Source of the DNA: an uncultured Actinomycetota bacterium
GTDB lineage: Bacteria > Actinomycetota > Actinomycetes > Mycobacteriales > Mycobacteriaceae
Assembly (NCBI GenBank): GCA_963730415.1
Contig: CAVSSC010000018.1
Span: forward strand, 28,273-92,272
Direction of reading: 5' to 3'
Length of the DNA stretch: 64,000 nt
Shown: positions 4,805 through 29,765 of the stretch, piece by piece
Layout: every line of letters starts with the position of its first letter
Numbering within the stretch: position 1 is the first letter of the stretch
Translations under genes and position numbers: made by a program
The notes under the pieces: generated by a model
What the model was told of the DNA's origin: nothing
What the model saw: the letters and a program-made list of their open reading frames with translations, nothing else
Database searches by the model: none

Positions 4805-6064
4805 GTGACCGCAACGCCGCGCGAATTCGAGATCGTGTTGTACGGGGCGACCGGCTTCGTCGGGAAGCTGACCGCCGAATACCTGGCAAGGTCAGGGCCC
4901 GACGTGCGGATCGCGCTGGCCGGCAGGTCAACCGAACGCTTGCGCGCCGTTCGCGACACTCTGGGCCAATCCGCGCAGTCCTGGCCAGTTCTGGTCGCCG
5001 ATGCCTCGTCGCCGTCGACGCTGAACGAGATGGCGGCCCGCACACAAGTCGTCGTCACCACGGTCGGGCCCTACACCCGCTATGGGTTGCCGCTGGTGGC
5101 CGCGTGCGCCGCCGCGGGCACCGATTACGCCGACCTGACCGGTGAGGCGATGTTTGTCCGCGACAGCATCGACCTGTACCACAAGCAGGCCGCCGATACC
5201 GGTGCCCGCATTGTGCATGCCTGCGGATTCGATTCCGTCCCTTCGGATCTCAGCGTGTATGCGCTATACCGGGCGGCACAAGACCACGGCGCCGGCGAGC
5301 TCGTCGGCACCGACCTCGTCGTCCGGTCCTTCTCCGGCGGGTTCTCCGGCGGCACCATCGCGTCGATGATCGAAGTGCTGAACACAGCTTCCCGCGATCC
5401 CGACGCACGCCGCCAACTTGCCGACCCGTACACGCTGAGCACCGACCGCAGCGCCGAACCTGAACTCGGCCCGCAGCCCGACCTGCCGTGGCGTCGTGGT
5501 CATCAGATCGCGCCGGAACTGGCCGGCCTCTGGACGGCGGGATTCGTGATGGCGCCCTACAACACCCGAATCGTGCGCCGCAGCAACGCATTACTGGACT
5601 GGGCTTACGGCCGCCAGTTCCGCTACAGCGAAAGCATGAGCCTGGGGTCGTCGTCGCTCGCGCCACTGGCATCCGCCGCGGTGAGCGGGGTCGCCAGCGC
5701 AACCTTTGGATTGGGCAGCCGCTACTTTCGGCTGCTGCCGCGTCGGCTGCTGGAGCGCGTCGTCCCCAAACCCGGGACCGGCCCGAGTGCGGCGGCTCGG
5801 GAGCGCGGCTACTACCGGATCGAGACTTACACCAGCACAACCAGCGGCGCCCGTTATGTAGCGCGCATGGAGCAGCGGGGAGACCCCGGCTATAAGGCGA
5901 CCTCGGTGCTGTTGGGTGAGTGCGGCCTTGCGCTTGCATTCGACCGCGACAAGCTCTCAGACCTGCGTGGCGTGCTCACACCCGCGGCCGCGATGGGTGA
6001 TGCGTTACTGGCGAGATTCCCCGCCGCCGATGTGACATTGCAGGTCGATCCGCTGGCCGAGTGA
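4805..6064 (+). CDS. saccharopine dehydrogenase-family NAD(P)-binding protein (trans-acting enoyl reductase-like, Rv2449c-like)
   Basis: 419 aa. N-terminal Rossmann motif VLYGATGFVGKL. Position between rpfE and valS matches the backbone order. Confidence 0.8.
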   Translation: MTATPREFEIVLYGATGFVGKLTAEYLARSGPDVRIALAGRSTERLRAVRDTLGQSAQSWPVLVADASSPSTLNEMAARTQVVVTTVGPYTRYGLPLVAACAAAGTDYADLTGEAMFVRDSIDLYHKQAADTGARIVHACGFDSVPSDLSVYALYRAAQDHGAGELVGTDLVVRSFSGGFSGGTIASMIEVLNTASRDPDARRQLADPYTLSTDRSAEPELGPQPDLPWRRGHQIAPELAGLWTAGFVMAPYNTRIVRRSNALLDWAYGRQFRYSESMSLGSSSLAPLASAAVSGVASATFGLGSRYFRLLPRRLLERVVPKPGTGPSAAARERGYYRIETYTSTTSGARYVARMEQRGDPGYKATSVLLGECGLALAFDRDKLSDLRGVLTPAAAMGDALLARFPAADVTLQVDPLAE

Positions 6065-6127
6065 CCCCGCTCACCTGCAAATTTGGGCACTTACACCGGG
6101 GTAAACGGTGCTCCCTAGAATTGACGG

Positions 6128-8764
6128 GTGACCGCCAGCCGCAGCTCCGCCACCGACCTGCCCAAGTCCTGGGATCCCGGTGCGATAGAGAGCGCGATCT
6201 ACCAGAAGTGGCTGGATGCGGGCTACTTCGCGGCGGACGCAACTAGCACCAAACCCGCGTACTCGATCGTGCTGCCACCGCCGAATGTGACCGGCAGCCT
6301 TCACATGGGCCACGCGCTGGAACACACCATGATGGACGCCCTGACCCGCCGCAAGCGAATGCAGGGCTACGAGGTGTTGTGGCAACCCGGCATGGACCAC
6401 GCGGGTATCGCGACCCAGAGCGTGGTGGAAAACCAACTCGCGGTCGATGGCAAGACCAAAGAGGACTTCGGCCGCGAGCTGTTCATCGAGAAGGTCTGGG
6501 ATTGGAAGCGTGAGTCTGGCGGTGCCATCGGTGGCCAGATGCGCCGGCTCGGTGACGGGGTGGACTGGAGCCGCGACCGGTTCACCATGGACGAGGGGCT
6601 GTCGCGGGCGGTGCGGACCATCTTCAAGCGGCTCTACGACGCCGGGCTGATCTACCAGGCCGAGCGGCTGGTCAACTGGTCGCCGGTACTTCAGACCGCA
6701 ATCTCGGATCTCGAGGTCAACTATGTTGACGTCGAAGGTGAGCTGGTGTCGTTCCGGTACGGCTCGCTGGAGGACTCGCAACCTCACATCGTGGTCGCCA
6801 CCACCCGGGTCGAGACGATGTTGGGCGATACCGCGATCGCGGTACACCCCGATGACGAGCGCTACCGCCACCTCGTCGGTACCAGCCTGCCGCACCCTTT
6901 TGTGGACCGGCAGCTCGTCATTGTCGCCGACGAGCATGTGGACCCCGAATTCGGCACCGGAGCCGTCAAAGTCACGCCCGCGCACGACCCCAACGACTTC
7001 GAGATCGGGCTGCGGCACAGCTTGCCGATGATCTCGATTCTGGACACCAAGGGCCGGATCGTGGATACCGGAACGCAATTCGACGGCATGGATCGTTTCC
7101 AGGCTCGTATCGCGGTGCGCGAGGCTCTGGCGGCCCAGGGCCGAATCGTCGAAGAGAAACGGCCCTACCTGCACAGCGTCGGACACTCGGAGCGCAGCGG
7201 CGAGCCGATCGAGCCGCGGCTGTCGCTGCAGTGGTGGGTCCGGGTGGAGTCGCTGGCCAAGGCCGCCGGCGACGCAGTCCGCAACGGGGACACCGTGATT
7301 CATCCCGCCAGCCTGGAACCGCGCTGGTTCGCCTGGGTCGACGACATGCACGACTGGTGCATCTCGCGGCAGCTGTGGTGGGGCCACCGTATCCCGATCT
7401 GGTACGGGCCCAACGGCGAACAGGTGTGCGTCGGTCCGGACGAGACTCCCCCGGAGGGCTGGGAGCAGGACCCCGACGTGCTGGATACCTGGTTCTCGTC
7501 GGCGCTGTGGCCGTTCTCCACGCTGGGCTGGCCGGAAGAGACTCCGGAACTGGAAAAGTTCTATCCGACAAGCGTTCTGGTCACCGGCTACGACATCTTG
7601 TTCTTCTGGGTGGCCAGAATGATGATGTTCGGCACCTTCGTCGGCGGCGACGACGCCATCACCCTGGACGGCCGCCGAGGCCCGCAGGTGCCGTTCACGG
7701 ATGTGTTCCTACATGGGCTGATCCGTGACGAATTCGGCCGCAAGATGAGTAAGTCCAAGGGCAACGTCATCGACCCGCTGGACTGGGTGGAGATGTTCGG
7801 GGCCGACGCGCTGCGGTTCACGCTGGCCCGCGGCGCCAGCCCCGGTGGTGATCTGTCCGTCGGCGAGGACGCCGTCCGGGCCTCGCGCAGTTTCGTTACC
7901 AAGCTGTTCAATGCCACCCGGTTCGCGCTGCTCAACGGTGCCAGCCCGGCGCCGCTGCCCGAACTTGCTGACCTGACCGCCGAGGACAGCTGGATCTTGG
8001 GACGGATGGAGGAGGTTCGCGCCGAAGTTGATTCGGCGTTCGACGGCTACGAGTTCGGCCGGGCCTGCGAGGCGCTCTATCACTTCACATGGGACGAATT
8101 CTGCGACTGGTATGTCGAATTGGCGAAGGTGCAGCTTGCCGACGGCCTCGCGCATACCACCGCCGTGCTGGCCGCGGTACTCGATACACTGCTGCGGCTG
8201 CTGCACCCGGTGATCCCGTTCGTCACCGAGGCGCTGTGGCAAGCACTGACCGGCGGAGAGTCGCTGGTGGTCGCCGACTGGCCGACGCCGTCCGGGGTCA
8301 GCCTGGATCCCATTGCCGCCCAGCGGGTCAGCGATATGCAAAAGCTGGTGACCGAGGTCCGTCGGTTCCGCAGCGATCAGGGTCTGGCGGACCGGCAGAA
8401 GGTGCCGGCCCGCTTGGTCGGTGCTGGGAATCTGAGCGCACAGGTGATGGCCCTGACCTCGCTGGCCACACCGGGTCCCGAGTTCAGCCCCTCGGCGTCA
8501 CTGGAGGTCCGGCTCGGGCCCAGCATGGACCACACCGTCCTCGAACTCGACACCTCGGGCACCATCGACGTCTCCGCCGAGCGCCGCCGCCTGGAAAAGG
8601 ACCTGGCCGCAGCGCAAAAGGAGCTGGAATCGACCACCGCCAAATTGACCAACGCGGACTTTTTGGCCAAGGCTCCGCAAGACGTCGTCGGCAAGATTCG
8701 GGACCGTCAGCGCCTGGCCCAGGAGGAAACCGACCGGATCAACGCGCGGCTGGCCGGGCTGTAA
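6128..8764 (+). CDS. valS: valine--tRNA ligase
   Basis: 878 aa. Class I HIGH motif ([13 protein letters not shown]) and KMSKS motif ([11 protein letters not shown]). C-terminal coiled coil. Confidence 0.97.
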
Positions 8765-11404: not shown

Positions 11405-14251
11405 GTGGTAGACGGTGCACCATCTGCAGACCCATCCGAAGAGCCGACCCGGCACGAGGAATTGCCGGATCGCCTAAGAGTCCATTCGCTGGCACGAACG
11501 CTGGGGACCACCAGCAAGCGCGTGCTGGACGCGCTGAGCGCACTCGATGGACGAATCCGCAGCGCACATTCCACTGTGGACCGTGATGACGCGCTGCGGG
11601 TACGCGATCTGCTAGCTGGCGCTCAGCCCCTAAAAAGCACTGAAAACACAGACAGCAGCGCGGCTGAAGCGGACGAACCCGAATCCCGCCTGATGCTGGA
11701 GACCGCGATCGAGCGGCCGCATTACATGCCATTGTTCGTCGCGCCGCAGCCGATAAAGACCGACGATGACGACGGTAGCGGCGACGACGATATCGACTCC
11801 GATGATTCCGACACCGACGACGAAGACCAGACCGATCGCCCGGCCAACCGGCGGCGACGTCGCGGCCGTCGAGGTCGTGGCCGCGGACGCGGTGAACAGG
11901 GCGGATCCGACGGCCAAACGGAGGAGGCCGATGACGACGAGGAGGCTCAACACCGGGCCCAAAAACCGGCCCAACCGGACTCCTCGGAATCTGAGGACGC
12001 CGACGGCCAAGACTCCGATGACTCTGACACCGGTGACGACGGTTCGGCGGAGGGGGGCAGTCGCCGCCGCCGCAGGCGCCGGCGCCGCAAATCGGGATCG
12101 GGTGACGACAACGACGAGGGTCCAGCGCCCGACGACCCGCCCAACACGGTGGTGCACCAGCGGGCGCCACGCAACGGCAAGAACGGTGCCGCCGACGATG
12201 CTGAGAACGGCGCATCGAGCGCCGAGATCAAGGGCATCGACGGCTCGACTCGACTGGAGGCCAAGCGGCAACGGCGCCGAGACGGACGCGATGCCGGACG
12301 GCGCCGCCTACCGGTACTGACCGAGGCAGAGTTCCTGGCGCGCCGTGAGGCCGTCGAACGGGTCATGGTCGTGCGCGACAGGGTCCGCACCGAGCCACCG
12401 CATCAGGGCTCGCGGTATACCCAGATCGCGGTGCTTGAAGACGGCATCGTCGTTGAGCACTTCGTGACGTCGGCCGCCTCGGCTTCCCTGGTGGGCAACA
12501 TCTACCTCGGGATCGTGCAGAACGTACTGCCCTCGATGGAGGCGGCTTTCGTCGACATCGGTCGCGGCCGCAACGGCGTGCTCTACGCCGGAGAAGTCAA
12601 CTGGGAAGCCGCGGGACTAGGCGGGTCTGACCGCAAGATCGAACAGGCGCTCAAACCCGGCGACTATATCGTGGTCCAGGTCAGCAAGGACCCGGTCGGG
12701 CACAAGGGCGCACGGCTCACTACGCAGGTGTCACTGGCGGGTCGGTACCTGGTTTATGTGCCGGGCGCGTCGTCGACCGGGATCAGCCGCAAGCTGCCCG
12801 ACACCGAACGCCAACGGCTCAAAGAGATCCTGCGCGAAGTGGTGCCGTCCGAAGCCGGGGTGATCATCCGCACTGCGTCCGAGGGTGTCAAAGAGGACGA
12901 CATCCGCAGCGACGTGACCCGTCTGCAGGAGCGCTGGAAACAAATTGAGGCCAAGGCAACCGAGATCAAGGAGAAGGCTGCTGGCGCTGCGGTAGCGCTC
13001 TACGAAGAGCCGGACGTGTTGGTCAAGGTCATTCGTGACTTGTTCAACGAGGACTTCGCTGGCCTCGTCGTCTCCGGCGACGAGGCTTGGAACACAATCA
13101 CCGAGTACGTGAATTCTGTTGCTCCCGAACTAGTTTCCAAGCTGACAAAGTACGAGCCCGCCACGGGGCCGGAGGGGAATGCCGGACCGGATGTGTTCGC
13201 GGTGCATCGCATCGACGAGCAACTCGCCAAAGCGATGGACCGCAAGGTGTGGCTGCCGTCGGGCGGCACGCTGGTGATTGACCGGACCGAGGCCATGACG
13301 GTGGTCGACGTCAACACCGGCAAGTTCACCGGGTCCGGGGGCAACCTCGAACAGACGGTCACGAAGAACAACCTGGAGGCGGCCGAGGAGATCGTCCGCC
13401 AACTGCGACTGCGCGACATCGGCGGCATCGTGGTCATCGACTTCATCGATATGGTGCTGGAGTCCAACCGCGATTTGGTGTTGCGTCGGCTGACCGAGGC
13501 GCTGGCCCGCGACCGCACCCGCCATCAGGTGTCCGAGGTCACTTCGCTGGGCTTGATTCAACTGACCCGCAAGCGGTTGGGAACCGGGCTGATCGAGGCG
13601 TTCTCGACATCGTGTCCGAACTGCGGCGGTCGCGGGATCCTGCTGCACACCGATCCGGTGGATTCGGCTCCGTCGAACGGGCGCAAGTCCGAGTCCGGTG
13701 GTCGCCGGGGCAGGCGATCTAAGAAGAGCCGAGCCGAAGAGCCAGTGGTGGCCAAGGTGCCCGCGCATGCTCCCGGCGAGCACCCGATGTTCAAGGCGAT
13801 GGCCGCCGGCTCGTCGGGGCAGGCTGCCCACAGTGACGAAGAATCCGGCGAGTCCGCCGAGGAAGCCGCCGGCGAGCTCGACGAGCAGAAGCAAGTGAGT
13901 GCTGCCGACTTGGAGGACACCGACCGGGAGGACTTCGAGGACTCCGACGAAGACACTGAAGAAGACGAAGACACTGAAGAAGACGAAGACGCTGAGGACG
14001 ACGACGACACTGAGGACGACGAAGACGAGCTCGACGACGAGGACCTCGACGACGAGGAAGACCTTGGTGACGATGACGAGGATCTCGAGCTGGATGACGA
14101 CGATCTGGACGTCGAGGATTCCGACTCCGAGCCCGACGACTCCGACGCCGACACCGCGGAGAGCTCCGTCAACGTCGGGTCGCCGTTCGGACGGCCGCGT
14201 CGGCGGCGCGCGGCGGGCAGGCCGGCCGGTCCGCCGATCCACACGGACTGA
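11405..14251 (+). CDS. rne: ribonuclease E
   Basis: 948 aa. It has a central S1/RNase E/G catalytic core (GNIYLGIVQNVLPSMEAAFVDIG..., VVIDFIDM) and a Zn-link CPNCGGRG. Arg-rich and highly acidic low-complexity N- and C-terminal arms flank the core. Confidence 0.95.
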   Translation: MVDGAPSADPSEEPTRHEELPDRLRVHSLARTLGTTSKRVLDALSALDGRIRSAHSTVDRDDALRVRDLLAGAQPLKSTENTDSSAAEADEPESRLMLETAIERPHYMPLFVAPQPIKTDDDDGSGDDDIDSDDSDTDDEDQTDRPANRRRRRGRRGRGRGRGEQGGSDGQTEEADDDEEAQHRAQKPAQPDSSESEDADGQDSDDSDTGDDGSAEGGSRRRRRRRRRKSGSGDDNDEGPAPDDPPNTVVHQRAPRNGKNGAADDAENGASSAEIKGIDGSTRLEAKRQRRRDGRDAGRRRLPVLTEAEFLARREAVERVMVVRDRVRTEPPHQGSRYTQIAVLEDGIVVEHFVTSAASASLVGNIYLGIVQNVLPSMEAAFVDIGRGRNGVLYAGEVNWEAAGLGGSDRKIEQALKPGDYIVVQVSKDPVGHKGARLTTQVSLAGRYLVYVPGASSTGISRKLPDTERQRLKEILREVVPSEAGVIIRTASEGVKEDDIRSDVTRLQERWKQIEAKATEIKEKAAGAAVALYEEPDVLVKVIRDLFNEDFAGLVVSGDEAWNTITEYVNSVAPELVSKLTKYEPATGPEGNAGPDVFAVHRIDEQLAKAMDRKVWLPSGGTLVIDRTEAMTVVDVNTGKFTGSGGNLEQTVTKNNLEAAEEIVRQLRLRDIGGIVVIDFIDMVLESNRDLVLRRLTEALARDRTRHQVSEVTSLGLIQLTRKRLGTGLIEAFSTSCPNCGGRGILLHTDPVDSAPSNGRKSESGGRRGRRSKKSRAEEPVVAKVPAHAPGEHPMFKAMAAGSSGQAAHSDEESGESAEEAAGELDEQKQVSAADLEDTDREDFEDSDEDTEEDEDTEEDEDAEDDDDTEDDEDELDDEDLDDEEDLGDDDEDLELDDDDLDVEDSDSEPDDSDADTAESSVNVGSPFGRPRRRRAAGRPAGPPIHTD
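13949..14026 (+). repeat. 18-nt in-frame tandem repeat (DTEEDE-type) in the acidic tail of rne
   Basis: gaagacactgaagaagac occurs twice in tandem (13949, 13967), followed by two diverged copies. Confidence 0.85.
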
Positions 14252-18981: not shown

Positions 18982-19626
18982 TCAGCGCACCGAAGCGGCC
19001 TTGAGATACAGTGCGCCCCAGACGATTTCAGCCAGCGTCGCAGCCAGCTCCGTGTCGTAATCGGGTGGCTTTGCCGGTAGGTTCTGCTGGCAAGCCCGCT
19101 CGACCATCCAGGTCAGCGCACTGGCAGTGGTGGTCGCAGGCAGCTCAGGGCGGATGGAGCCGTCGGCCTGGCCGTCTTCGATGACACGGGTTAATCGCTG
19201 CGAGATAGCGGTCAGCAATTCGCGATAGGTCTGCGCCGTCAGTGGGTCGTAAGCGGCCATCTCGTTGAGAGCGACGAGCACCGGTTGATGACGCCGATAG
19301 CTTTCGATGACGCCCGCCATCGCGGCGCGAACATCATCTGGATTGTGTCGCCAGGCCACACTCCACCAGCGTTCGGCGCCGGTGGCGAGATCGCCGAATA
19401 CCTGGCCGGCGAGCCGGCGAAGCAGATGGCCCTTGTCTTCGAAGTAGATGTAAAAGCTGGCCCGCGAAATACCCGCCTCGGTTGACAGCCGATCCACGCT
19501 GAGCTCGGTGAAGCTGGTGCCGTCGCGCATCAGCCGTTCGGTGGCGTCCAGCAGCCGGCGCTCCATCTGCTCTCGCCGCTGCTCGCGATTGGCGTGCGGC
19601 TTGCGGGTAACCGACGGCATTTGCAA
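18982..19626 (-). CDS. TetR/AcrR-family transcriptional regulator
   Basis: 214 aa. N-terminal HTH region FTELSVDRLSTEAGISRASFYIYFEDK. Confidence 0.88.
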   Translation of the reverse strand: MQMPSVTRKPHANREQRREQMERRLLDATERLMRDGTSFTELSVDRLSTEAGISRASFYIYFEDKGHLLRRLAGQVFGDLATGAERWWSVAWRHNPDDVRAAMAGVIESYRRHQPVLVALNEMAAYDPLTAQTYRELLTAISQRLTRVIEDGQADGSIRPELPATTTASALTWMVERACQQNLPAKPPDYDTELAATLAEIVWGALYLKAASVR

Positions 19627-19653
19627 AGCATAGCTGTACTTTGAACATATTGA

Positions 19654-19670
19654 CTAGACACTATGTCTAG
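19654..19670. promoter_or_regulatory. candidate TetR operator CTAGACA-cta-TGTCTAG
   Basis: Perfect 7-bp inverted arms in the 100-nt divergent TetR/P450 intergenic region. Confidence 0.45.
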
Positions 19671-19726
19671 GCATATCGTCACTTCCAGTCTGTGACGGGG
19701 GTCATAGGTGAGGGAGGATTGCCGGC

Positions 19727-20995
19727 ATGACAACGATGGCAGGAACGTCTGGCAGTAGCCGCGCCTACGACGCAATCGATCTGTCCTCGCGGGCGTTCTG
19801 GTCCACGACCGCGGCGGAGCGGGAACGCTCGTTCGCGGTGCTGCGGGCCGAGCGCCCGGTGAGCTGGCATCCTCCGGTCGAAGACGCCCTGATGCACGAC
19901 CCCGAGGACCGCGGCTATTGGGCGATCACCCGGCGCTCCGACATCGTCACGGTCAGCCGCGCCAACGAGGTGTTCCTGTCCGGCAAGGGGGTGATTTTCG
20001 AGAACGTTCCCGAGGAACTACTCGAAGCGTCGCAGTCCTTCCTGGCGATGGATCCACCGCGACATACCAAGCTCCGCAAGCTCGTCAGCGCCGCGTTCAC
20101 CCCGCGGCAGGTCCGCCGCATCGAGGACTCGATCAAGTCGAACGCCAAGGCCATCGTCGAAGAGCTACAGGACGCCGGCAGCGGTGCCGATTTCGTCGAG
20201 CACTGCGCTAAGCAACTGCCCATCCGGACGCTGTCGGACATGGTGGGGATTCCGGAGTCCGAACGCGAGCACGTGGCGCACGCCGCCGATGCGCTGGTGT
20301 CGTGGGCCGACCCGATTTACCTCGACGGTCGCAGCCCGCTGGAGGTCTTGGTCGAGAACCAGATGTATCTGCACCAAGTTGCCGGCACGTTGGCCGCCGA
20401 GCGCCGCGAGCGCCCCGGCGACGACCTGTTCAGCGGTCTGGTGAACGCCGAGGTCGATGGCGACCGGCTAGCCGATGCGGATGTGGCAGCGTTCTTTGTG
20501 TTGCTTTCCGTGGCCGCCAACGACACCACGCGTCAGACCACCAGCCACGCGATGAAGGCCCTCACCGACTTTCCCGACCGGAGGGCATGGCTTCTCGAGG
20601 ATTTCGACCAACGCATCGGCACGGCGGTCGAGGAGCTCATCCGTTGGGCCTCGCCGGTTATGACTTTCCGTCGCACGGCCGCAACAGATTTCGAGCTAGG
20701 CGGCCAGCGGATTCTGGCGGGGGAAAAGGTGGTGATGTTTTATCCGTCCGGCAACTGGGATACCGAGGTGTTCGACTATCCCGAGCGCTTCGACCTGAGC
20801 CGGGATCCCAACCCCCACGTCAGCTTCGGTGGTGGCGGCGTGCACTTTTGCCTTGGTGCCCACGTGGCCCGGGCGCAACTACGCGCCATCTTCGGCGAGC
20901 TGCTCCGGCAGCTACCGGATATCCAGGCAGGTGAACCCGCATACGTGCCGGGCAATTTCATCCACGCCATCCGCAGCATGCCCTGCACCTTCTAG
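19727..20995 (+). CDS. cytochrome P450 monooxygenase
   Basis: 422 aa. Heme-thiolate loop FGGGGVHFCLGAHVA, ExxR motif (EELIRW) and I-helix region AANDTT. Confidence 0.92.
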   Translation: MTTMAGTSGSSRAYDAIDLSSRAFWSTTAAERERSFAVLRAERPVSWHPPVEDALMHDPEDRGYWAITRRSDIVTVSRANEVFLSGKGVIFENVPEELLEASQSFLAMDPPRHTKLRKLVSAAFTPRQVRRIEDSIKSNAKAIVEELQDAGSGADFVEHCAKQLPIRTLSDMVGIPESEREHVAHAADALVSWADPIYLDGRSPLEVLVENQMYLHQVAGTLAAERRERPGDDLFSGLVNAEVDGDRLADADVAAFFVLLSVAANDTTRQTTSHAMKALTDFPDRRAWLLEDFDQRIGTAVEELIRWASPVMTFRRTAATDFELGGQRILAGEKVVMFYPSGNWDTEVFDYPERFDLSRDPNPHVSFGGGGVHFCLGAHVARAQLRAIFGELLRQLPDIQAGEPAYVPGNFIHAIRSMPCTF

Positions 20996-21840
20996 TGCAG
21001 GGATATCGGCAGCAGCTCTTCGCTGAGCAGCACCAGCAATTCGGAGCAGCCGCCGTCGACCTTCACGGTGGCCAGGTCATCGCCGCGGGTGCTGCCGCGG
21101 TTGACGATAGCTATCGGGACGCCCAGCGCGGCGGCGTGACGCACGAATCGGTAGCCGGAGAACACGGTCAGCGACGAGCCCGCGACCAGCAGTGCCTCGG
21201 CCTGGTCGACCAGTGAATAGGCTTCTGCTACAAGCTCTTTGGGCACGTTTTCGCCGAAGTAGACGATGTCTGGCTTGAGCATGCCCCCGCAGCACGGACA
21301 GTCGAGATAGCGGAACGACGTGGTATCGGCGACGACTGCGTCGGCGTCAGGAGCTACCGCCAACCCGCCCACAGCTTCGGCGCGCTCGATGAATCCCGGG
21401 TTGAGTGCTTCCAGCTGTTTGGCCAATGCGGCGCGGCTCATGGTGTAGCCGCAGCTCAGGCAGATCACTTGCGCATAGGTGCCGTGCAGATTGACGACGT
21501 TTGCACTGCCGGCCTTGGTGTGCAGCAGGTCGACGTTCTGGGTGATCACGCCGGTCACCACCGAAGCATGCTCGAGTGCGGCCAATGCCCGGTGGCCGGC
21601 GTTGGGCAGGGTGTCGTCCATGTGCCGCCAGCCGACGTGGTTGCGCGCCCAGTACCGCTGCCGGAACACCGGGTCCGAGGTGAACTGGCGGATGGTCATG
21701 GGGTTGCTCGGCGGTGATTCAGGCCCCCGGTAGTCGGGAATGCCCGAGTCGGTGGAAATCCCCGCACCCGTCAGCACCGCGATCCGGCGACCGGCCAGCA
21801 GCGCGACCAGCTCCGGCGATTCTGCGCAGCGGGCGGTCAC
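20992..21840 (-). CDS. NAD-dependent protein deacylase (Sir2/sirtuin family)
   Basis: 282 aa. GAGISTDSGIPDYRGP and QNVDLLH motifs. Zn-ribbon cysteines CLSCG...CPCCGG. Confidence 0.9.
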   Translation of the reverse strand: MTARCAESPELVALLAGRRIAVLTGAGISTDSGIPDYRGPESPPSNPMTIRQFTSDPVFRQRYWARNHVGWRHMDDTLPNAGHRALAALEHASVVTGVITQNVDLLHTKAGSANVVNLHGTYAQVICLSCGYTMSRAALAKQLEALNPGFIERAEAVGGLAVAPDADAVVADTTSFRYLDCPCCGGMLKPDIVYFGENVPKELVAEAYSLVDQAEALLVAGSSLTVFSGYRFVRHAAALGVPIAIVNRGSTRGDDLATVKVDGGCSELLVLLSEELLPISLH

Positions 21841-24196: not shown

Positions 24197-24749
24197 TCAG
24201 CCGGGGCGCTCGTAGGTGCCGGTCAATACGCCCCGGGCCAGCACATGACCGCTCATCGCGGCCAGCAGAGCTTTGGATGTGGTGACGGTGTCGCCAATGG
24301 GTTCGTCGATCGCGAAGACATGAAATCGGTAGTGGTGCGGCCCATGGCCGGGGATCGGGCGTGGTCCGGCATAGCCGTGGTGACCCAAATCCGCCCGGAT
24401 GAACCGCATTCCCGGGCTTCCCGGCTGCAACGAATCCGCGGCGGTGCCGTCAAGCGTAGGTTCGACCACCGCGACGGTGTGCCGCATTGGGCGGGGCAGC
24501 GGAACATCGACGTCGTCGATGATGAGCACTACCTGCCGGGGTCCCGGCTGGTAGCCCGTCCCAGCGCAACGGCGGGGAAACGTTGTCGCCGACGCCCTTT
24601 CCGGCGCTGGAAGTCGGCATGACGCCGCCGTCGGTGAACGCGGTGCTGGTCACCGTGATGGAGGTGGGCGCGTCAAAGCCACTGCCGGCCAGCGGACTTC
24701 GATGCGCGCCCGCGCGGACTCCGCGGAGCAGCCTTCCCAGTAGCGCCAT
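24197..24749 (-). pseudogene. YbhB/YbcL (PEBP) family protein, frameshifted
   Basis: The N-terminal part (ITVTSTAFTDGGVMP...NVSPPLRWDGLPAGT) is in ORF 24450..24749. The C-terminal part (LIIDDVDVPLP...GPHHYRFHVFAID) is in ORF 24197..24529. The frames join around the C/G run at 24536-24545. The start overlaps the leuD-like stop (TAATG). Confidence 0.7.
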
Positions 24750-25309
24750 TAGGCGCCACTCCCGGCGCCGCGGATCGCCACGGTGGGTGACCGCAGCAGG
24801 TCGCCGAGCTCGACCGGCAGGTAACCCTGTGCCACCAACCGCGGCAATACGCCGCCGCTTTCGATGATGTCGAGGATGAGGTCGGGCAGTTTAGGGACGC
24901 TTCCCGACACCCCCGTGGTGTCGTTACGCCATGTGCCGGCGGTCAGATCGAACGTTCCGGTGTCACCCTCCCGAAACAGGGCGGTGGCGTCGGGAACGGT
25001 CATCGCCGGTAGGCCGGCGTTGACGGCATTGCGGAAAAACAGGGAATTGAATTCCTCGGCGACGAGTCCGGCGACGCCGAGCTCGACGAAAAGGGCCGCC
25101 ACTGGCCGCGACGACCCGAGCCCGAAATTCTTGCCGGCCAGCACGATGTCACCCGGTGCCACCTGGTCCGTCCAACCCGGGCGGACCTCGTAGAAGATAT
25201 GCTTGGCCGCCTCCGGCGGGTCCATCTTCATGGCGAAAGCCGGGTACATGGCATCGGTATTCAGGTTGTCGCCGAACACCCACACCTTTCCGCTAAAGAC
25301 GACCGTCAT
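24749..25309 (-). CDS. aconitase-family dehydratase small subunit (LeuD-like)
   Basis: 186 aa starting [23 protein letters not shown]..., with [14 protein letters not shown] overlap with the large subunit. The rest of the 458-aa track ORF is an artefactual extension. Confidence 0.85.
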
Positions 25310-26547
25310 GCCGTCACACTCCTTGGGTCGGTGATATAGCCGGTGATCGCAGACGCAGCAACCGTCGCCGGTGACGCCATGAAGATCTCCGCCTCGGTGC
25401 TGCCCATGCGTCCGGTGAAGTTGCGGGTGCTCGAGGTGATGCACACTTCCCCGGGGCCCAGCACACCCATGTGGTAACCGAAACACGCGCCGCAGGTGGA
25501 GTTCGTGATGACCGCACCGGCGTCCGCCAGGTCCTGCAAGTACCCCAACCGCATGGCTTCCCGGTACACGGCCTGTGAGGCGGGCGTAACCAATAGTCGA
25601 ACGCCCGGAGCAACGGCCTTGCCGCGCAGCACCTGTGCGGCGATCTGGAGGTCCTCGAGCTGGCCGTTGGCGCAGGAGCCGATGAATGCTTGGTCCACCT
25701 TCTGCCGGCCCAGCTGTGAGACCGGCAGCCCATTGCGGCTGACGGTGCCCGGCCGCGCTACATACGGTTCCAGCGTCGCCAGGTCGACATGCCGGACCTC
25801 TTGGTACGTTGCGTCGGAATCCGGTGTGGCAGCGTCGTATTCGGTGACGCCACGCTCGCCGAGAAACGACGTCAAAACGTCGTCGGGCTCGAACGTGCCG
25901 AAGTCGGCGGAAACCTCGGCGCACTGGGTCGCGATGGTGCGCCGATCGTGCATCGGGATGCCGGCCAGACCGGAGCCGCCGAATTCCAGGTTCAGGTTGG
26001 GGGCGTCGCCGTACTCGTTGGCAATATGCAGGAAGATGTCCTTGCCGCTCACAGTGTGTGGCTTGGCGCCGTCGAGCTGGTAGCGGATGGTCGGCGCGAC
26101 TTGGAACCACGTCGTGCCGGTGCACATGATCGAATAGACCTCCGCGGGCCCCAGCCCCCGCGCCGCGGTGTTGTAGGCGCCCGCAGCGCAGGTATGAGAA
26201 TCGGTGCAGGCCAGTATTTCTCCCGGGCGGGCCAGTCCGTTCTCGGCGATCACCTGATGGCAGATACCGTGCCGTCCGACATCATAGAACCGCTCGATGC
26301 CGAAGTCGGCGACGAATTTTCGGGCGTGTGAGCCGCCGGCGGCATCTTTGATGGTTGGTGCCGGCACGGCGTGGTCCATGACGACCGCCAGCTTATCGGG
26401 GTCGTGAATCCGATTGGGCGCAATCCACATCGTGGCGAACTGCAGATCGATGAGGACGGTCATATCGACCCCGACCACGACGGTGTCACCCGGCGACACC
26501 GAATCCAGACCTGCCTTGCGGGCGAAGATCTTTTCGATGATCGTCAT
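25306..26547 (-). CDS. aconitase-family dehydratase large subunit (LeuC / homoaconitase-like)
   Basis: [13 protein letters not shown]... Fe-S ligand regions are present: CTDSHT, and GSCANG followed by NSTCGAC. The start at 26547 gives an ATGA overlap with the upstream gene (alternative ATG 26553). Confidence 0.87.
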
Positions 26548-27428
26548 GCCCATAAGGGGTCCTTCCGAGAGTAGCGGGCGTCGAGCTCGAGCCATTCGGC
26601 CATCCCCACCAAGTTGAAGAAATCGGCGGGCTTGGTGGGCAGATGCGGGGCGATGTCAGTGCCGTTGAGTTCGCAAAGGCTTTGCAGCATACCGAAAGTG
26701 GCCTGTATCAGGAGGTTGCTTGGATGGATCGCGATTGCGTATCCCAACTCCTGCAGCCGCGACGCCGACTGCAGCGGCGTCATGCCACCGAGCACCAGAT
26801 TGATCAGCAGGGGAGCGTCCACTTCACGTGCGATGCGCTCGATTTCGCCGGTGTCCTGCGGCGCCTCCACAAAGATGATGTCCGCGCCCGCTTGCGCGTA
26901 CCGGTTGGCACGCTCGATCGCCGCGTCCAGGCCGAGTGGGGCGCGTGCGTCGGTGCGGGCCACCACCAGCAGGTTCTCGTCGGACCTGGCGTCCAGCGCG
27001 GCGGCGAGCGTCTGTGCGAATACTGCCGCGTCGACGACCTGCTTGTCCGGCAGGTGCCCGCAACGCTTGGGGAACACCTGATCTTCCAACTGGATCGCGG
27101 CCACACCCGCTGCGTCGTAGGAACGGACCGTGCGGACCACGTTCATGGGTGCGCCGTAGCCGGTGTCGGCGTCGGCGATCAGCGGAATGTCGCCTAATGC
27201 GCCGGCGATCATCGCGACCCGATCGGCCATTTCGGTCGCCGTGACGAGACCGATGTCGGGCAACCCGAAGCCCGACGCCGCCACGCCGGCCCCGGTCATA
27301 TACGCAGCTACGTGGCCGGTCCGCTTGGTCAGGTGCGCGGAGATACCGTCGAAAACGCCCGGCGCAATGATGAGTTCGTGCTTGTCCAGCAGGTCTTTCA
27401 GCCGCTGGCGGGCCGGTGTCGTGGCCAT
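26544..27428 (-). CDS. isocitrate lyase / PEP mutase superfamily enzyme (2-methylisocitrate lyase-like)
   Basis: 294 aa. Family motifs DADTGYG and EDQVFPKRCGHL (the KRCGH catalytic loop). Confidence 0.85.
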   Translation of the reverse strand: MATTPARQRLKDLLDKHELIIAPGVFDGISAHLTKRTGHVAAYMTGAGVAASGFGLPDIGLVTATEMADRVAMIAGALGDIPLIADADTGYGAPMNVVRTVRSYDAAGVAAIQLEDQVFPKRCGHLPDKQVVDAAVFAQTLAAALDARSDENLLVVARTDARAPLGLDAAIERANRYAQAGADIIFVEAPQDTGEIERIAREVDAPLLINLVLGGMTPLQSASRLQELGYAIAIHPSNLLIQATFGMLQSLCELNGTDIAPHLPTKPADFFNLVGMAEWLELDARYSRKDPLWA

Positions 27429-27441
27429 GGTGCTCGTCCTT

Positions 27442-28872
27442 TCAGTCCAGTGCCCCCGCGACAGGGGCGGCGAGCAGATCTACCAGGTAGTTGGTGTCGT
27501 CAAGCTCGTCGAGACCGATTACCGCCTGCTCGATCGCGTCGGCGCGCCCGCGGCTGGTGACCCGGTCGGCGAGCGCGTGGAACTTCGCGACAAGTTCTTC
27601 GTCGGTGACCGGGTCGGTGGGCGCGCCGTGCGGCGCAGCGACGCAGGCATGGTGCACGGCACCATCACGCGTGGTCACCGCGACATCGGTGCGGAACTTC
27701 TCGGTGATGTCGGCGTGGGTCAGCGATTCGTCGAGGTGAACCGTCGTTGCCGCGATCAGCGACCAGATGTCGTCGGAATCGAGGCGGGCGGGGGTGAACT
27801 GCTCGGGCAGCACGTTGCCGTCGAGCAGCGCCGCGGCCGTGGCATACCCGATATTCATCTGGGCCCCAATCGGGGTGAGCGGGCGCTGTGGCAGCCACCA
27901 GCCGTGCTTGTAGATGGTTTCGCCGACGGTGATGTCGATCTGCGAGATATCTTCGGGCGCAACGGATCCGCGCAGTTGCCTGGCGCTGTCGATGGCTCCG
28001 TGCAATCCGCCCATTGCGGCGTAGGACTTGACCATGATGATGCTGGTCTCCCACCGCTGGCCGAGTTGGCCGGTCAGCAGCGAGGCATCGGGATCGTGGC
28101 CCTCACCGAAAACACTGAGAAATCCGCCATATTCGCGCTCGAACACCCGCTTGATTCCGGTATAGCCGGCTGCCGCCAGCCCCGCGGCGTAGAAGCCGTT
28201 GCGTGCCGCCAGGCCATGGTGCATGCGCTTGCTCATGGCCTCGTACTGGGCGGCCATCAGCCCCGAGGACTGGGTGCCGGCCAATCCGAGCGCGTCTTCC
28301 AGTTGCCCTGGTGGAAGTCCGCGCAACTTGCCGGATGCCATGGCCGCCGAGTGGGTGCCAAAGACGGATCCCGAGTGCCAGCCGCGGTCGAGCATCTGGG
28401 TGCCGTGCAGCGTGTAGCCGACCCGGGGACCAACTTCGAAGCCGGCGATTGCTGCCAGCAGGAGTTCGGCGCCCGTCGTTGGTTCCGGCCGTGTTGACGC
28501 CGTCGACAGCAGTGCCGGAATGAGCAGCGAGCAGCTGTGCAGCGGGGCGAGAGGATGGAAGTCATCGAGCTCGAAGCCCTGAATGAAGGTGCCGTTGAGT
28601 ATCGCTGCCGCGGGTGCGCCGGTCGTATGTCCAGTGCCGATGACGACAGTGTCGCCGGGGCTTTCCAAGCCGAGGACACCCTCGGTGGCGATTCGTGACC
28701 ACGGCAATTGCGCCCCGACCAGGGCGCAGCCCATGCCGTCCAGCAGGAGGTGTTTTGCACGGTCGACGACGGTCTGGGGGACATCATCGAGCGTGAGACC
28801 GGCAACCCAGGTGGCAAGTCGCCCGGTCGGCCCTGCTGGATCAGTGGCGGCCTGCTGTTGTACCGCGGTCAT
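27442..28872 (-). CDS. MmgE/PrpD-family protein (2-methylcitrate dehydratase / cis-aconitate decarboxylase family)
   Basis: About 476 aa from ATG 28872 (MTAVQQQAATDP...LATWVAGLTLDDVP...AKHLLLDGMGCAL), which is typical of the PrpD fold. Confidence 0.85.
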   Translation of the reverse strand: MTAVQQQAATDPAGPTGRLATWVAGLTLDDVPQTVVDRAKHLLLDGMGCALVGAQLPWSRIATEGVLGLESPGDTVVIGTGHTTGAPAAAILNGTFIQGFELDDFHPLAPLHSCSLLIPALLSTASTRPEPTTGAELLLAAIAGFEVGPRVGYTLHGTQMLDRGWHSGSVFGTHSAAMASGKLRGLPPGQLEDALGLAGTQSSGLMAAQYEAMSKRMHHGLAARNGFYAAGLAAAGYTGIKRVFEREYGGFLSVFGEGHDPDASLLTGQLGQRWETSIIMVKSYAAMGGLHGAIDSARQLRGSVAPEDISQIDITVGETIYKHGWWLPQRPLTPIGAQMNIGYATAAALLDGNVLPEQFTPARLDSDDIWSLIAATTVHLDESLTHADITEKFRTDVAVTTRDGAVHHACVAAPHGAPTDPVTDEELVAKFHALADRVTSRGRADAIEQAVIGLDELDDTNYLVDLLAAPVAGALD

Positions 28873-28893
28873 CCGATCTCCCCTTAAGCCTGT

Positions 28894-28917
28894 AGTTGTT
28901 ATATACATATAACAACT
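28894..28917. promoter_or_regulatory. candidate GntR operator: AGTTGTTATAT-ac-ATATAACAACT
   Basis: Perfect 11-bp inverted arms containing a GT-N-TA-N-AC-type core. It is the only AT-rich element in the 68-nt divergent region between the PrpD-like and GntR genes. Confidence 0.6.
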
Positions 28918-28940
28918 GATCGGACTACGCAAGGGACCGT

Positions 28941-29765
28941 GTGGAAGCATTGACCACCATGCACCAGAGCAGCAGTAAGGCCGGACCGGTGTCGACCGTG
29001 GCCGGGGTGCCGTTGCACCGGCAGCTGTTCTTGGTGCTGCACGACGAGATCGACCGCGGCGTCATCGCGCCCGGCGATGCGTTGCCCACCGAGCAGACAC
29101 TGTGCGACCAGTTCGGGGTTTCTCGTATCACGGTGCGCCGGGCACTGGCGGACCTAGCCGAACAGGGATACATCGAGCGCAGGCGCGGCGTCGGTTCGTT
29201 TGTGCGCCAGCACGGTCCGGCGGACGTGTCATCGGGGGGCCGCTCATACACGGAAGGGCTGCGACAGACCCAGTTCGAAACCGAGGTCGACGTGGTCGAA
29301 CTCGGCGTGCGACGCCCCCCGCGGGTCATCGCCGAAGCGCTCGAGACGTCTGGCGAGCTGGTGCACATTGTGCGGGTACGGCGGCAACGCAGGACCGGCG
29401 AGCCGTTGATGGTGAGTGACGCCTGGCTGCCGCAGGAACTGGCCGACGTGTTGACCGAGCCCGCGTTGCGGCGCGCGCCGCTCTACGATCTGCTGTCAGA
29501 TGCCGGAGTCGTCGTGGATCGCGTCCGGCACGAAATTACGGCCGAGATCGCGGGCCCACGCAACGCACAGTTGCTCGACACGGCGATCGGCGCTGCGCTG
29601 CTGCGCGTCAACCGCCTGGCATTTGTGGCTGACGCGCCGCATCACTACCTGTCGGCTCTACTATCGCCGAGCCGCAGTCGCGTGCTGCTCAGCCAAACGG
29701 CGGACGAAATGGAGAATGCCGACGGCATCACAATCGCCCACGACGTCGGCCGGCATTCCAGCTAG
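28941..29765 (+). CDS. GntR-family transcriptional regulator (HutC subfamily, UTRA effector domain)
   Basis: wHTH region LPTEQTLCDQFGVSRITVRRALADLAEQGYIERRRGVGSFV, followed by a UTRA-like C-terminal domain. Start is GTG 28941 or ATG 28959. Confidence 0.88.
   Translation: MEALTTMHQSSSKAGPVSTVAGVPLHRQLFLVLHDEIDRGVIAPGDALPTEQTLCDQFGVSRITVRRALADLAEQGYIERRRGVGSFVRQHGPADVSSGGRSYTEGLRQTQFETEVDVVELGVRRPPRVIAEALETSGELVHIVRVRRQRRTGEPLMVSDAWLPQELADVLTEPALRRAPLYDLLSDAGVVVDRVRHEITAEIAGPRNAQLLDTAIGAALLRVNRLAFVADAPHHYLSALLSPSRSRVLLSQTADEMENADGITIAHDVGRHSS

Follow-up and report, generated by a model that had tools for sequence, protein, structure and literature searches.

In the nicotinate fermentation of Eubacterium barkeri, a 3-methylitaconate isomerase feeds the dimethylmaleate hydratase DmdAB and the 2,3-dimethylmalate lyase Dml. 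Homologues of a different enzyme family, MmgE/PrpD, occur in about a fifth of sequenced prokaryotic species and are mostly uncharacterised; as of 2025 four activities were known, namely 2-methylcitrate dehydratase, cis-aconitate decarboxylase, iminodisuccinate epimerase and (S)-(R)-methylsuccinate isomerase, and the substrates of the characterised members are all free acids that contain a succinate substructure, for which an enolate route is proposed (PMC12290011). The methylsuccinate isomerase belongs to a catabolic cluster for branched C5 acids (PMC12290011), and the known itaconate cluster does not degrade citraconate or (R)-citramalate (PMC9875883). In fungal maleidride clusters, PEBP-domain proteins are found beside a PrpD-family alkylcitrate dehydratase and raise the product yield; they are thought to chaperone anionic or unstable maleic-anhydride intermediates, a role that has been called obscure (PMC9890510). 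Here we describe a locus in a 64,000-nucleotide stretch of DNA (the window) from an uncultured Actinomycetota bacterium of the family Mycobacteriaceae (GenBank assembly GCA_963730415.1, contig CAVSSC010000018.1). The window has a G+C content of about 65%, and Mycobacterium is the source of the best protein matches. The locus encodes an MmgE/PrpD-family enzyme (PrpD-like), a lyase with a KRCGH motif, a two-subunit hydratase (LeuC-like and LeuD-like) and a PEBP/YbhB-like protein, with a GntR/HutC-type regulator gene on the opposite strand. Judging from sequence, we give a little more than an even chance to the view that these genes form an inducible catabolic module, independent of CoA and ATP, for a small substituted C4-dicarboxylic acid. 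Families were assigned with Pfam, and function-level calls were judged against the NCBIfam equivalog cut-offs.

The enzyme genes and the route they would form

Four reading frames on the minus strand, taken from the list of open reading frames (ORFs) and their translations, encode the PrpD-like enzyme, the KRCGH lyase and the LeuC-like and LeuD-like subunits. The TGA of the PrpD-like gene is followed after 13 nt (aaggacgagcacc) by the lyase ATG at 27428; an ATGA at 26547-26544 is both the stop of the lyase gene and the start of the LeuC-like gene, and another at 25309-25306 joins the LeuC-like and LeuD-like genes in the same way. The LeuD-like TAA and the ATG of the PEBP gene share one base (TAATG), which completes the translational coupling of the operon. 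An earlier reading of this DNA, made from its letters without database searches (the sequence-only reading), had given the extent 24749-29765, the 13-nt gap and the ATGA overlaps, all of which were confirmed by the ORFs and the junction sequences, and its family assignments were borne out by Pfam and NCBIfam. Its proposal of a four-gene operon under GntR control stands for the four genes, but the fifth gene (PEBP) and the operator had been missed, and the GntR gene, being divergently transcribed, is not part of the enzyme operon.

The PrpD-like protein has the two-domain MmgE/PrpD fold (MmgE_PrpD_N, 218 bits; MmgE_PrpD_C, 124.7 bits), yet it falls far short of the PrpD equivalog NF042438 (PrpD_hiGCgrampos; 20.8 bits against a cut-off of 950). 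Its nearest solved structures are cis-aconitate decarboxylase (CAD), the 'IRG1' protein of Bacillus subtilis and iminodisuccinate epimerase (E about 1e-31 to 1e-28), and no PrpD structure was matched even at E values up to 10. Residues H112, H166, K215 and K282 are invariant in the orthologous group and align with H103, H159, K207 and K272 of human CAD, to which the protein is 26% identical. In citraconate-bound human ACOD1, these four residues hold both carboxylates, and His103 is placed to protonate C2 (PMC13495696). The aromatic lid position (CAD Tyr318/Phe) is kept as Tyr or Phe in the orthologues, Asp93 of CAD is replaced by Glu101, and there is an alignment gap at Thr97. Because the protein is nearer to CAD and to the epimerase and isomerase members of the family than to true PrpD, isomerisation or decarboxylation may replace dehydration. 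The PrpD-like protein is predicted to be the entry enzyme of the module, performing cofactor-free enolate chemistry on a succinate- or maleate-type acid; the entry role is suggested by the fact that it is the best-conserved member, shares an operon with a major facilitator superfamily (MFS) gene in Paraburkholderia, and survives together with the PEBP gene in a mycobacterial locus (L076) described below.

A different role for the same protein would be that of an epimerase or racemase, which corrects a 3-alkylmalate stereoisomer that is wrong for the LeuCD-like hydratase and the lyase rather than making a maleate. Two of the four characterised activities of the family are free-acid epimerisations (PMC12290011, PMC9875883), the iminodisuccinate epimerase is among the closest solved structures, and the position of CAD Asp93 is taken by a Glu. 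The spacing from this Glu to the catalytic His is 11, the same as between Glu91 and His102 of methylsuccinate isomerase and one more than the 10 of CAD, a match that is by numbering only. However, the residue that corresponds to the second base of the isomerase, Tyr148, again by residue numbering only, is an Asp four residues before His166, and the PrpD-like gene is conserved better than any other of the set and in some cases has a transporter operon to itself, as one would expect of an entry enzyme rather than of one on a side branch. We regard the epimerase role as plausible but unlikely.

The lyase matches Pfam PEP_mutase (152 bits) and ICL and carries FPKRCGH in its translation. Its best NCBIfam match is prpB, but it lies under the cut-offs of both prpB equivalogs (TIGR02317, 254.2 against 354.4; NF008455, 207.8 against 353), and its best solved-structure match is petal death protein (PDP; 3e-58). 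The protein is 37-43% identical to PDP, 2,3-dimethylmalate lyase (DML) and methylisocitrate lyase (MICL) alike, a range that also includes the structure 4iqd and the DML of Aspergillus niger (38%). As overall identity does not discriminate among these enzymes, individual positions were used instead. Residues D58, D86, D88, E115, K121, C123, H125, R158, E188 and N210 are invariant in the alignment, and the residue numbering coincides with that of E. coli PrpB (C123, R158, E188, N210). In the PrpB structures, Thr212 and Arg241 presumably bind the distal carboxylate of the succinate moiety, and F186, I234 and P236 are taken by us to form the pocket for the C2 methyl group. The window lyase keeps F186, I234 and P236. 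Position 212 is Val in the window lyase, its orthologues and DML, Ile in PDP and Thr in MICL; position 241, counted from N210, is Ile in the window lyase and S, K, G or L in the orthologues. The alignment to PDP and DML reaches residues 285-289, while that to MICL ends at about 238. The lyase is thus predicted, from its sequence, to cleave a 2-methyl-(3-alkyl)malate to pyruvate and a short acid.

In the hydratase, the LeuC-like subunit matches Pfam Aconitase (272 bits) and contains the Fe-S ligand motifs GSCANG and CGACFG; its best solved-structure match is the large subunit of the isopropylmalate/citramalate isomerase of Methanocaldococcus jannaschii (2e-90). Subfamily models are passed (PRK00402, 441.9 against 385; hacA_fam, 409.8 against 385.7), as is the LeuD/DmdB-family model TIGR02087 by the small subunit (129.6 against 108.95). 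The equivalogs of the leucine pathway are failed throughout: LEU2 TIGR02083 gave 376 against 611, leuC TIGR00170 176 against 560 and leuD TIGR02084 107 against 246. The loop of the small subunit presumably sets specificity, and the Arg in the YLRT loop is one that we take, from the M. jannaschii work, to bind the extra carboxylate. In the LeuD-like protein this loop reads FAMK, which aligns with YLVY of isopropylmalate isomerase (IPMI; 3vba), YLRT of homoaconitase (2pkp) and YNLT of Pyrococcus horikoshii, so that a Met occupies the position of the homoaconitase Arg. FAMK is hydrophobic like the YLVY of IPMI, which favours an alkyl-maleate/alkyl-malate dicarboxylate over a tricarboxylate as the probable substrate. 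A near-canonical LeuCD in the Paraburkholderia cluster likewise fits an alkyl-maleate rather than a tricarboxylate. In the fused hydratases of two other loci, L086 and that of the fungus Paecilomyces variotii, the equivalent of aconitase Arg580 is obscured by introns and loop divergence.

Taken together, the features of the lyase, the LeuD loop and the Paraburkholderia LeuCD point to an alkyl-substituted maleate or malate dicarboxylate, with pyruvate as one product. The route would run as follows. In the first step, the His/His/Lys/Lys enolate site of the PrpD-like enzyme would turn the incoming acid into a cis-alkyl-maleate, the simplest being citraconate. The incoming acid might be an itaconate-type alkylidene-succinate, or else a 2-alkylmalate, for example (S)-citramalate, in a stereochemical form that is no direct substrate for the hydratase. 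The chemistry could be a 1,3-proton shift, which on an alkylidene-succinate amounts mechanistically to half of what the decarboxylase does; a syn-dehydration, which would parallel the reason why PrpD exists beside aconitase; or an epimerisation. A decarboxylation is less likely. In the second step, the [4Fe-4S] LeuCD-like enzyme would hydrate the maleate to a (2R)-2-methyl-(3-alkyl)malate, for example (R)-citramalate or 2,3-dimethylmalate, and in the third the KRCGH lyase would split the C2-C3 bond to give pyruvate and acetate, propionate or another short acid. The PEBP may assist the PrpD-like step as an anion-binding accessory protein, perhaps by taking up a maleate or anhydride intermediate. 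A substituted-maleate route resembling the dimethylmaleate hydratase and dimethylmalate lyase steps had been put forward in the sequence-only reading, and the residue-level features of the lyase and the LeuD loop appear to agree with it.

The three activities are also those of the three post-synthase steps of the methylcitrate cycle. The obvious alternative is accordingly that the locus is a back-up or variant of the lower part of that cycle, in which the PrpD-like enzyme dehydrates 2-methylcitrate or another alkylcitrate, the LeuCD-like enzyme rehydrates the resulting alkyl-cis-aconitate, and the lyase acts as PrpB to give pyruvate and succinate. The prpB model is indeed the best NCBIfam match of the lyase (254 bits), and relatives of the PrpD-like protein at 44-46% identity that occur with PrpF, TctA/TctB/TctC and PrpD paralogues suggest tricarboxylates. 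However, the PrpD-like protein scores 20.8 where the equivalog demands 950 and matches no PrpD structure at E up to 10; the lyase, which scores under the prpB cut-offs, carries V212 and I241 where MICL presumably contacts the distal carboxylate; the loop of the LeuD-like subunit is hydrophobic; the regulator is a HutC-type rather than a PrpR-type protein; and neither prpC nor an acyl-CoA synthetase gene is found in the flanks examined. More broadly, no citrate or methylcitrate synthase and no CoA ligase was present among the genes within about 9 kb on either side of the operon, and no citrate-synthase-family gene was seen in the window flanks or in the annotated or Pfam-labelled contexts of the other clusters. 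With equivalog scores so far below the cut-offs and no synthase or CoA ligase nearby, the earlier claim that this is neither a standard methylcitrate nor a standard leucine module is upheld, and we consider a variant methylcitrate cycle quite unlikely.

A bolder and more specific version of the catabolic module would make the PrpD-like enzyme a CAD relative that carries out no more than the proton-shuttling half of the CAD reaction and so isomerises itaconate or alkylidene-succinates to citraconate or alkyl-maleates. The operon would then carry out a CoA-independent breakdown of itaconate-family acids, by isomerase, Fe-S hydratase and lyase in turn, to pyruvate and acetate, with the PEBP handling the maleate or anhydride. 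If this were true, such a route would be common to non-tuberculous mycobacteria, Burkholderiaceae and fungi, and the PEBP would have the first metabolic role for a bacterial member of its family. We put it forward as a speculation of low probability.

Regulator, operator and the PEBP gene

The regulator combines a winged helix-turn-helix domain (Pfam GntR, 70.3 bits) with an effector domain (UTRA, 67.1 bits). It belongs to the HutC subfamily but, with a score of 105.8 against the HutC equivalog cut-off of 220, is not HutC itself. Its start is probably the conserved GTG at 28941, and the N-terminal codons for ME(A/T)LTT are kept in the aligned loci. In the middle of the 68-bp spacer between the GntR and PrpD-like genes, at 28896-28915, lies a perfect 20-bp palindrome, TTGTTATATACATATAACAA, which is separated by 23 nt from the PrpD-like ATG and by 25 nt from the GntR GTG. 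The palindrome is unique within the 64-kb window even when three mismatches are allowed, and shuffled sequences lead one to expect none. In an intergenic alignment of 46 mycobacterial loci, TTGTTATA-N4-TATAACAA is the sole block that is at least 90% conserved, and sites resembling GTTATA..TATAAC adjoin the orthologous GntR genes of the proteobacterial loci L084 and L081. We infer that 28896-28915 is a putative operator, through which the regulator would repress both divergent promoters, including its own; the acid or an intermediate, bound at the UTRA domain, would relieve the repression. A scan for the sigma-70 consensus found no promoter match, a negative that carries little weight in mycobacteria. 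In L084, operator-like GTTAT..ATAAC sites are also found at 12131-12147 and 12302-12318, upstream of a neighbouring PrpF-MFS operon, and the PrpF-type isomerase and second transporter of this locus may form part of one regulon with the cluster.

The fifth gene of the operon is split in the window: it lies in two reading frames and gave two tblastn segments, owing to a +1 frameshift, an extra C in the C-run at about 24541-24544, relative to L001, L004 and L016. The window copy may be either a pseudogene or the product of a homopolymer sequencing error. Once repaired, the 183-aa protein matches Pfam PBP (PF01161) with 82.5 bits, compared with 79.8 bits for the intact L001 orthologue and 89.2 bits for the Ralstonia one; the YbhB/YbcL subfamily model is narrowly missed (52.4 against 57.75). 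A PEBP gene is present in 57 of the 61 assessable mycobacterial loci, in 51 of them as a single segment covering at least 90% of the protein, and also in Ralstonia L082, in L084/L085, in numerous loci from metagenomes and in the P. variotii locus L089. The features of the locus are listed in Table 1.

Table 1. Coordinates of the regulator, operator and operon genes in the window, and of hydrolase-type genes found beside PrpD-like orthologues in other loci
Feature	Position	Strand	Remarks
GntR/HutC regulator	28941..29765	+	divergent from the enzyme operon; GntR and UTRA
Putative operator palindrome	28896..28915	.	intergenic; unique in the window, conserved across loci
MmgE/PrpD-family enzyme, 476 aa	27442..28872	-	Pfam MmgE_PrpD_N and MmgE_PrpD_C
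PEP-mutase/isocitrate-lyase-superfamily C-C lyase, 294 aa	26544..27428	-	Pfam PEP_mutase and ICL; FPKRCGH
Aconitase-family large subunit, 413 aa, archaeal-type LeuC/HacA	25306..26547	-	Pfam Aconitase
Aconitase-family small subunit, 186 aa, LeuD/DmdB family	24749..25309	-	Aconitase_C; TIGR02087
PEBP/YbhB-like fifth operon gene	24197..24749	-	frameshifted at about 24541-24544; Pfam PBP after repair
Hydrolase-type neighbours of PrpD-like orthologues	L086 2382-3161; L162 6867-7847; L117 8239-9435; L105 6137-6835		

Conservation in Mycobacterium and recurrence elsewhere

A scan of species-representative genomes yielded 80 loci with 79-93% identity, all of them from Mycobacterium or uncultured Actinomycetota bins; the species include M. 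colombiense, M. mantenii, M. scrofulaceum, M. paraffinicum and M. ahvazicum. Their common order is cyclase, PfkB kinase and GntR, followed on the opposite strand by PrpD-like, lyase, LeuC, LeuD, (PEBP) and NadE, and the five core genes are intact in 55 of the 61 loci that have enough flanking DNA. In the locus closest to that of the window, L001 (93% identity), an IS110-family transposase gene (Transposase_20 / DEDD_Tnp_IS110; 11428-13054) lies between the PrpD-like and lyase genes. In L076 (10001-12020), the lyase and both hydratase genes have been lost, and GntR, PrpD-like and PEBP remain beside NadE, a pattern that suggests that the PrpD-like protein and the PEBP are a functional pair on their own. 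Two loci have a second MmgE/PrpD paralogue, about 29% identical, just downstream of the PEBP gene (L039, 14671-15510; L055, 14676-15665). Apart from such a paralogue, the variable spacer between PEBP and NadE holds in other loci unrelated ORFs that look by eye PE/PPE-like, kinase-like or GGDEF-like, and neither a transporter nor a pathway gene was seen in this spacer in the other mycobacterial loci.

One flank of the block contains Obg, ProB, TetR, P450, Sir2 and NadE genes, and the other a PfkB kinase, an adenylate cyclase, an MscS-cNMP protein, an aldehyde dehydrogenase-family protein and AAA/VWA proteins. The TetR regulator, the cytochrome P450 and the Sir2-family deacetylase, at 18982-21840 between ProB and NadE, are apparently unrelated to the operon. 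A horizontally transferred island was considered and ruled out: the G+C fraction is 0.65-0.66 both in and outside the block, and the flank order is the same in the mycobacterial loci examined.

Outside Mycobacterium, a tblastn search of plasmids found PrpD-like orthologues with 53-57% identity in replicons of Ralstonia, Paraburkholderia and Caballeronia. The cluster of Paraburkholderia sp. 22B1P is annotated in the order lyase, leuC and leuD, then GntR, then MmgE-PrpD and MFS; in Ralstonia it is GntR, then MFS, lyase, LeuC, LeuD, PEBP, PrpD-like and porin, and the same arrangements occur again in soil metagenome contigs, so that MFS and porin genes often accompany the set. The PrpD-like protein (54-57%), the lyase (43-47%), the GntR protein (39-40%) and the PEBP (35-40%) of these clusters are orthologous to those of the window. 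The hydratase is not an orthologue: that of Paraburkholderia is a LeuCD of the bacterial type, which shares only about 30% identity with the window protein and passes the leuC and leuD equivalogs. On the Paraburkholderia plasmid of L081 (5949-7962), the cluster hydratase is annotated as leucine-biosynthesis LeuCD with Gene Ontology terms, a label that, given the context, is probably a mis-annotation.

The hydratase takes further forms in two other clusters. In L086 the PrpD-like gene is followed by a gene for a fused 658-aa aconitase of the PRK07229 type and then by the lyase gene. This aconitase (5009-6985) reads GSSANPG where GSC is usual and keeps the CNGC pair, so that its first Fe-S Cys ligand appears to be replaced by Ser. 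In P. variotii, a PrpD-like protein with 47% identity is encoded within 8 kb of genes for an ICL-family lyase, an 815-aa aconitase-family protein, a zinc-cluster transcription factor and a PBP-domain protein. Four hydratase architectures are therefore found beside the same partnership of PrpD-like enzyme and lyase, with or without the PEBP, a pattern that argues strongly for a joint function of the partners. The association is not universal: in a small set of 10 metagenome loci from outside Mycobacterium that extend for at least 3.5 kb to either side, lyase and hydratase genes were present in six and a PEBP gene in four. Where the module is incomplete, hydrolase genes often adjoin the PrpD-like gene, encoding a protein with a metallo-beta-lactamase fold, a dienelactone hydrolase, an alpha/beta hydrolase or a putative esterase (Table 1), which hints that the substrate may be released from a lactone, an anhydride or an ester.

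Taken as a neighbourhood without a common pathway, held together by conserved synteny alone, the block would at least fit its setting in a housekeeping region and its unremarkable composition, but this is scarcely credible when its genes overlap by 4 nt and 1 nt and the same families have come together independently in a fungus and in other phyla, in other orders and with other hydratase types.

Assessment and comparison with known systems

Several points weigh against a catabolic module for a substituted dicarboxylate. The mycobacterial cluster lacks a transporter gene. The lyase, equally similar to PDP, DML and MICL, is not placed in a single functional clade by its overall similarity, and the roles that we assign to residues 186, 212, 234, 236 and 241 and to the LeuD loop are presumed ones. 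PEBP proteins are not known to have an enzymatic role. Many orthologues of the PrpD-like protein with 52-55% identity have no partner gene, or none but a lyase, a TctC receptor or a hydrolase gene, which indicates that the enzyme does not always need the hydratase, and the relatives with 44-46% identity adjoin PrpF, TctA and further PrpD paralogues, a hint of tricarboxylates. Activity, induction or phenotype data were found for no orthologue in the searchable literature. The earlier description of the cluster as uncharacterised holds, no assignment having turned up in the full-text literature searched, where papers on isoprene in Variovorax and on citramalate in A. niger proved to have no bearing on it.

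The operon might also run in the biosynthetic direction, the lyase condensing pyruvate with a short acid, the hydratase dehydrating the product, and the CAD-like enzyme with the PEBP making an alkyl-maleic or itaconic acid or anhydride for export. The reactions of the ICL family are reversible, the MFS and porin genes could serve export, and the genus of P. variotii produces maleidrides; moreover, the pairing of a PrpD-family enzyme with a PEBP is otherwise known only from the fungal maleidride clusters (PMC9890510). Nevertheless, the contexts examined contain no gene for a synthase, a polyketide synthase (PKS) or a ketosteroid isomerase (KSI)-like cyclase, and these bacteria are not known to make such a product. 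A HutC-type repressor with a divergent operon is typically a mark of catabolism, and the architecture of repressor and transporter genes fits biosynthesis poorly. We hold biosynthesis to be very unlikely and keep to the catabolic module as the preferred reading.

All parts of this module come from known families, and the predicted chemistry has close precedents. It is of interest because the gene set turns up again in other phyla and a fungus, because its PEBP partner is unexplained, and because direct tests are possible: the PrpD-like proteins form a well-delimited orthologous group with fixed partners, which makes their function directly testable. As citraconate and (R)-citramalate lie outside the known itaconate cluster, a CoA-independent route for branched C5-type acids would fill a gap. 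The conserved PEBP partner offers a way into the function of bacterial PEBP proteins and may explain the PEBP genes beside PrpD-family enzymes in the maleidride clusters. Relatives of the M. avium and M. simiae complexes carry the module, which is not known from M. tuberculosis, and it may mark a metabolic difference between environmental or opportunistic mycobacteria and obligate pathogens. The suggestion in the sequence-only reading that it is relevant to host dicarboxylates finds no support, as the module occurs widely in metagenome bins from soil and peat and also in Burkholderiaceae and a mould.

The fungal maleidride clusters, with their alkyl-maleic acid or anhydride intermediates, are the only other known setting in which an MmgE/PrpD enzyme is conserved beside a PEBP (PMC9890510). 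The locus differs from them in having a lyase and a hydratase and in occurring in bacteria, and it cannot be counted among them, as no highly reducing PKS, alkylcitrate synthase or KSI-like cyclase was found in the Pfam-labelled bacterial or P. variotii contexts. With methylsuccinate isomerase and iminodisuccinate epimerase, the PrpD-like protein shares a family that acts on free di- and polycarboxylates without a cofactor and by way of an enolate, but those enzymes are encoded with a CoA-transferase, an acyl-CoA dehydrogenase or a C-N lyase, whereas the partners here are a hydratase and an ICL-type lyase. ACOD1/IRG1/CadA provides the closest solved structure, and the counterparts of His103, His159, Lys207 and Lys272 and the aromatic lid are kept; the hydratase and lyase context nevertheless makes itaconate an unlikely end product.

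The lower 2-methylcitrate cycle (PrpD, AcnA/AcnB and PrpB) draws on the same three superfamilies and has the same logic, in which an unsaturated acid is rehydrated and then cleaved by a KRCGH lyase to pyruvate. In contrast to that cycle, the locus has no synthase gene, and none of its proteins reaches the PrpD, PrpB or aconitase equivalog cut-offs; the hydratase that takes the place of AcnA/AcnB is a LeuCD-type enzyme, a HutC-type protein is the regulator, there is an additional PEBP gene, and the lyase and the LeuD-like protein lack features that are presumably linked to binding of a third carboxylate. From the DmdAB and Dml steps of E. barkeri, the locus differs in that its upstream enzyme belongs to the MmgE/PrpD family rather than being a PrpF-fold isomerase, in that no other nicotinate-pathway genes are present, and in that its hosts are aerobic actinobacteria, proteobacteria and a fungus. 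What the two would have in common is a two-subunit hydratase of the LeuCD/DmdB family, an ICL-superfamily lyase with Val or Ile at position 212, and an upstream enzyme that supplies a substituted maleate.

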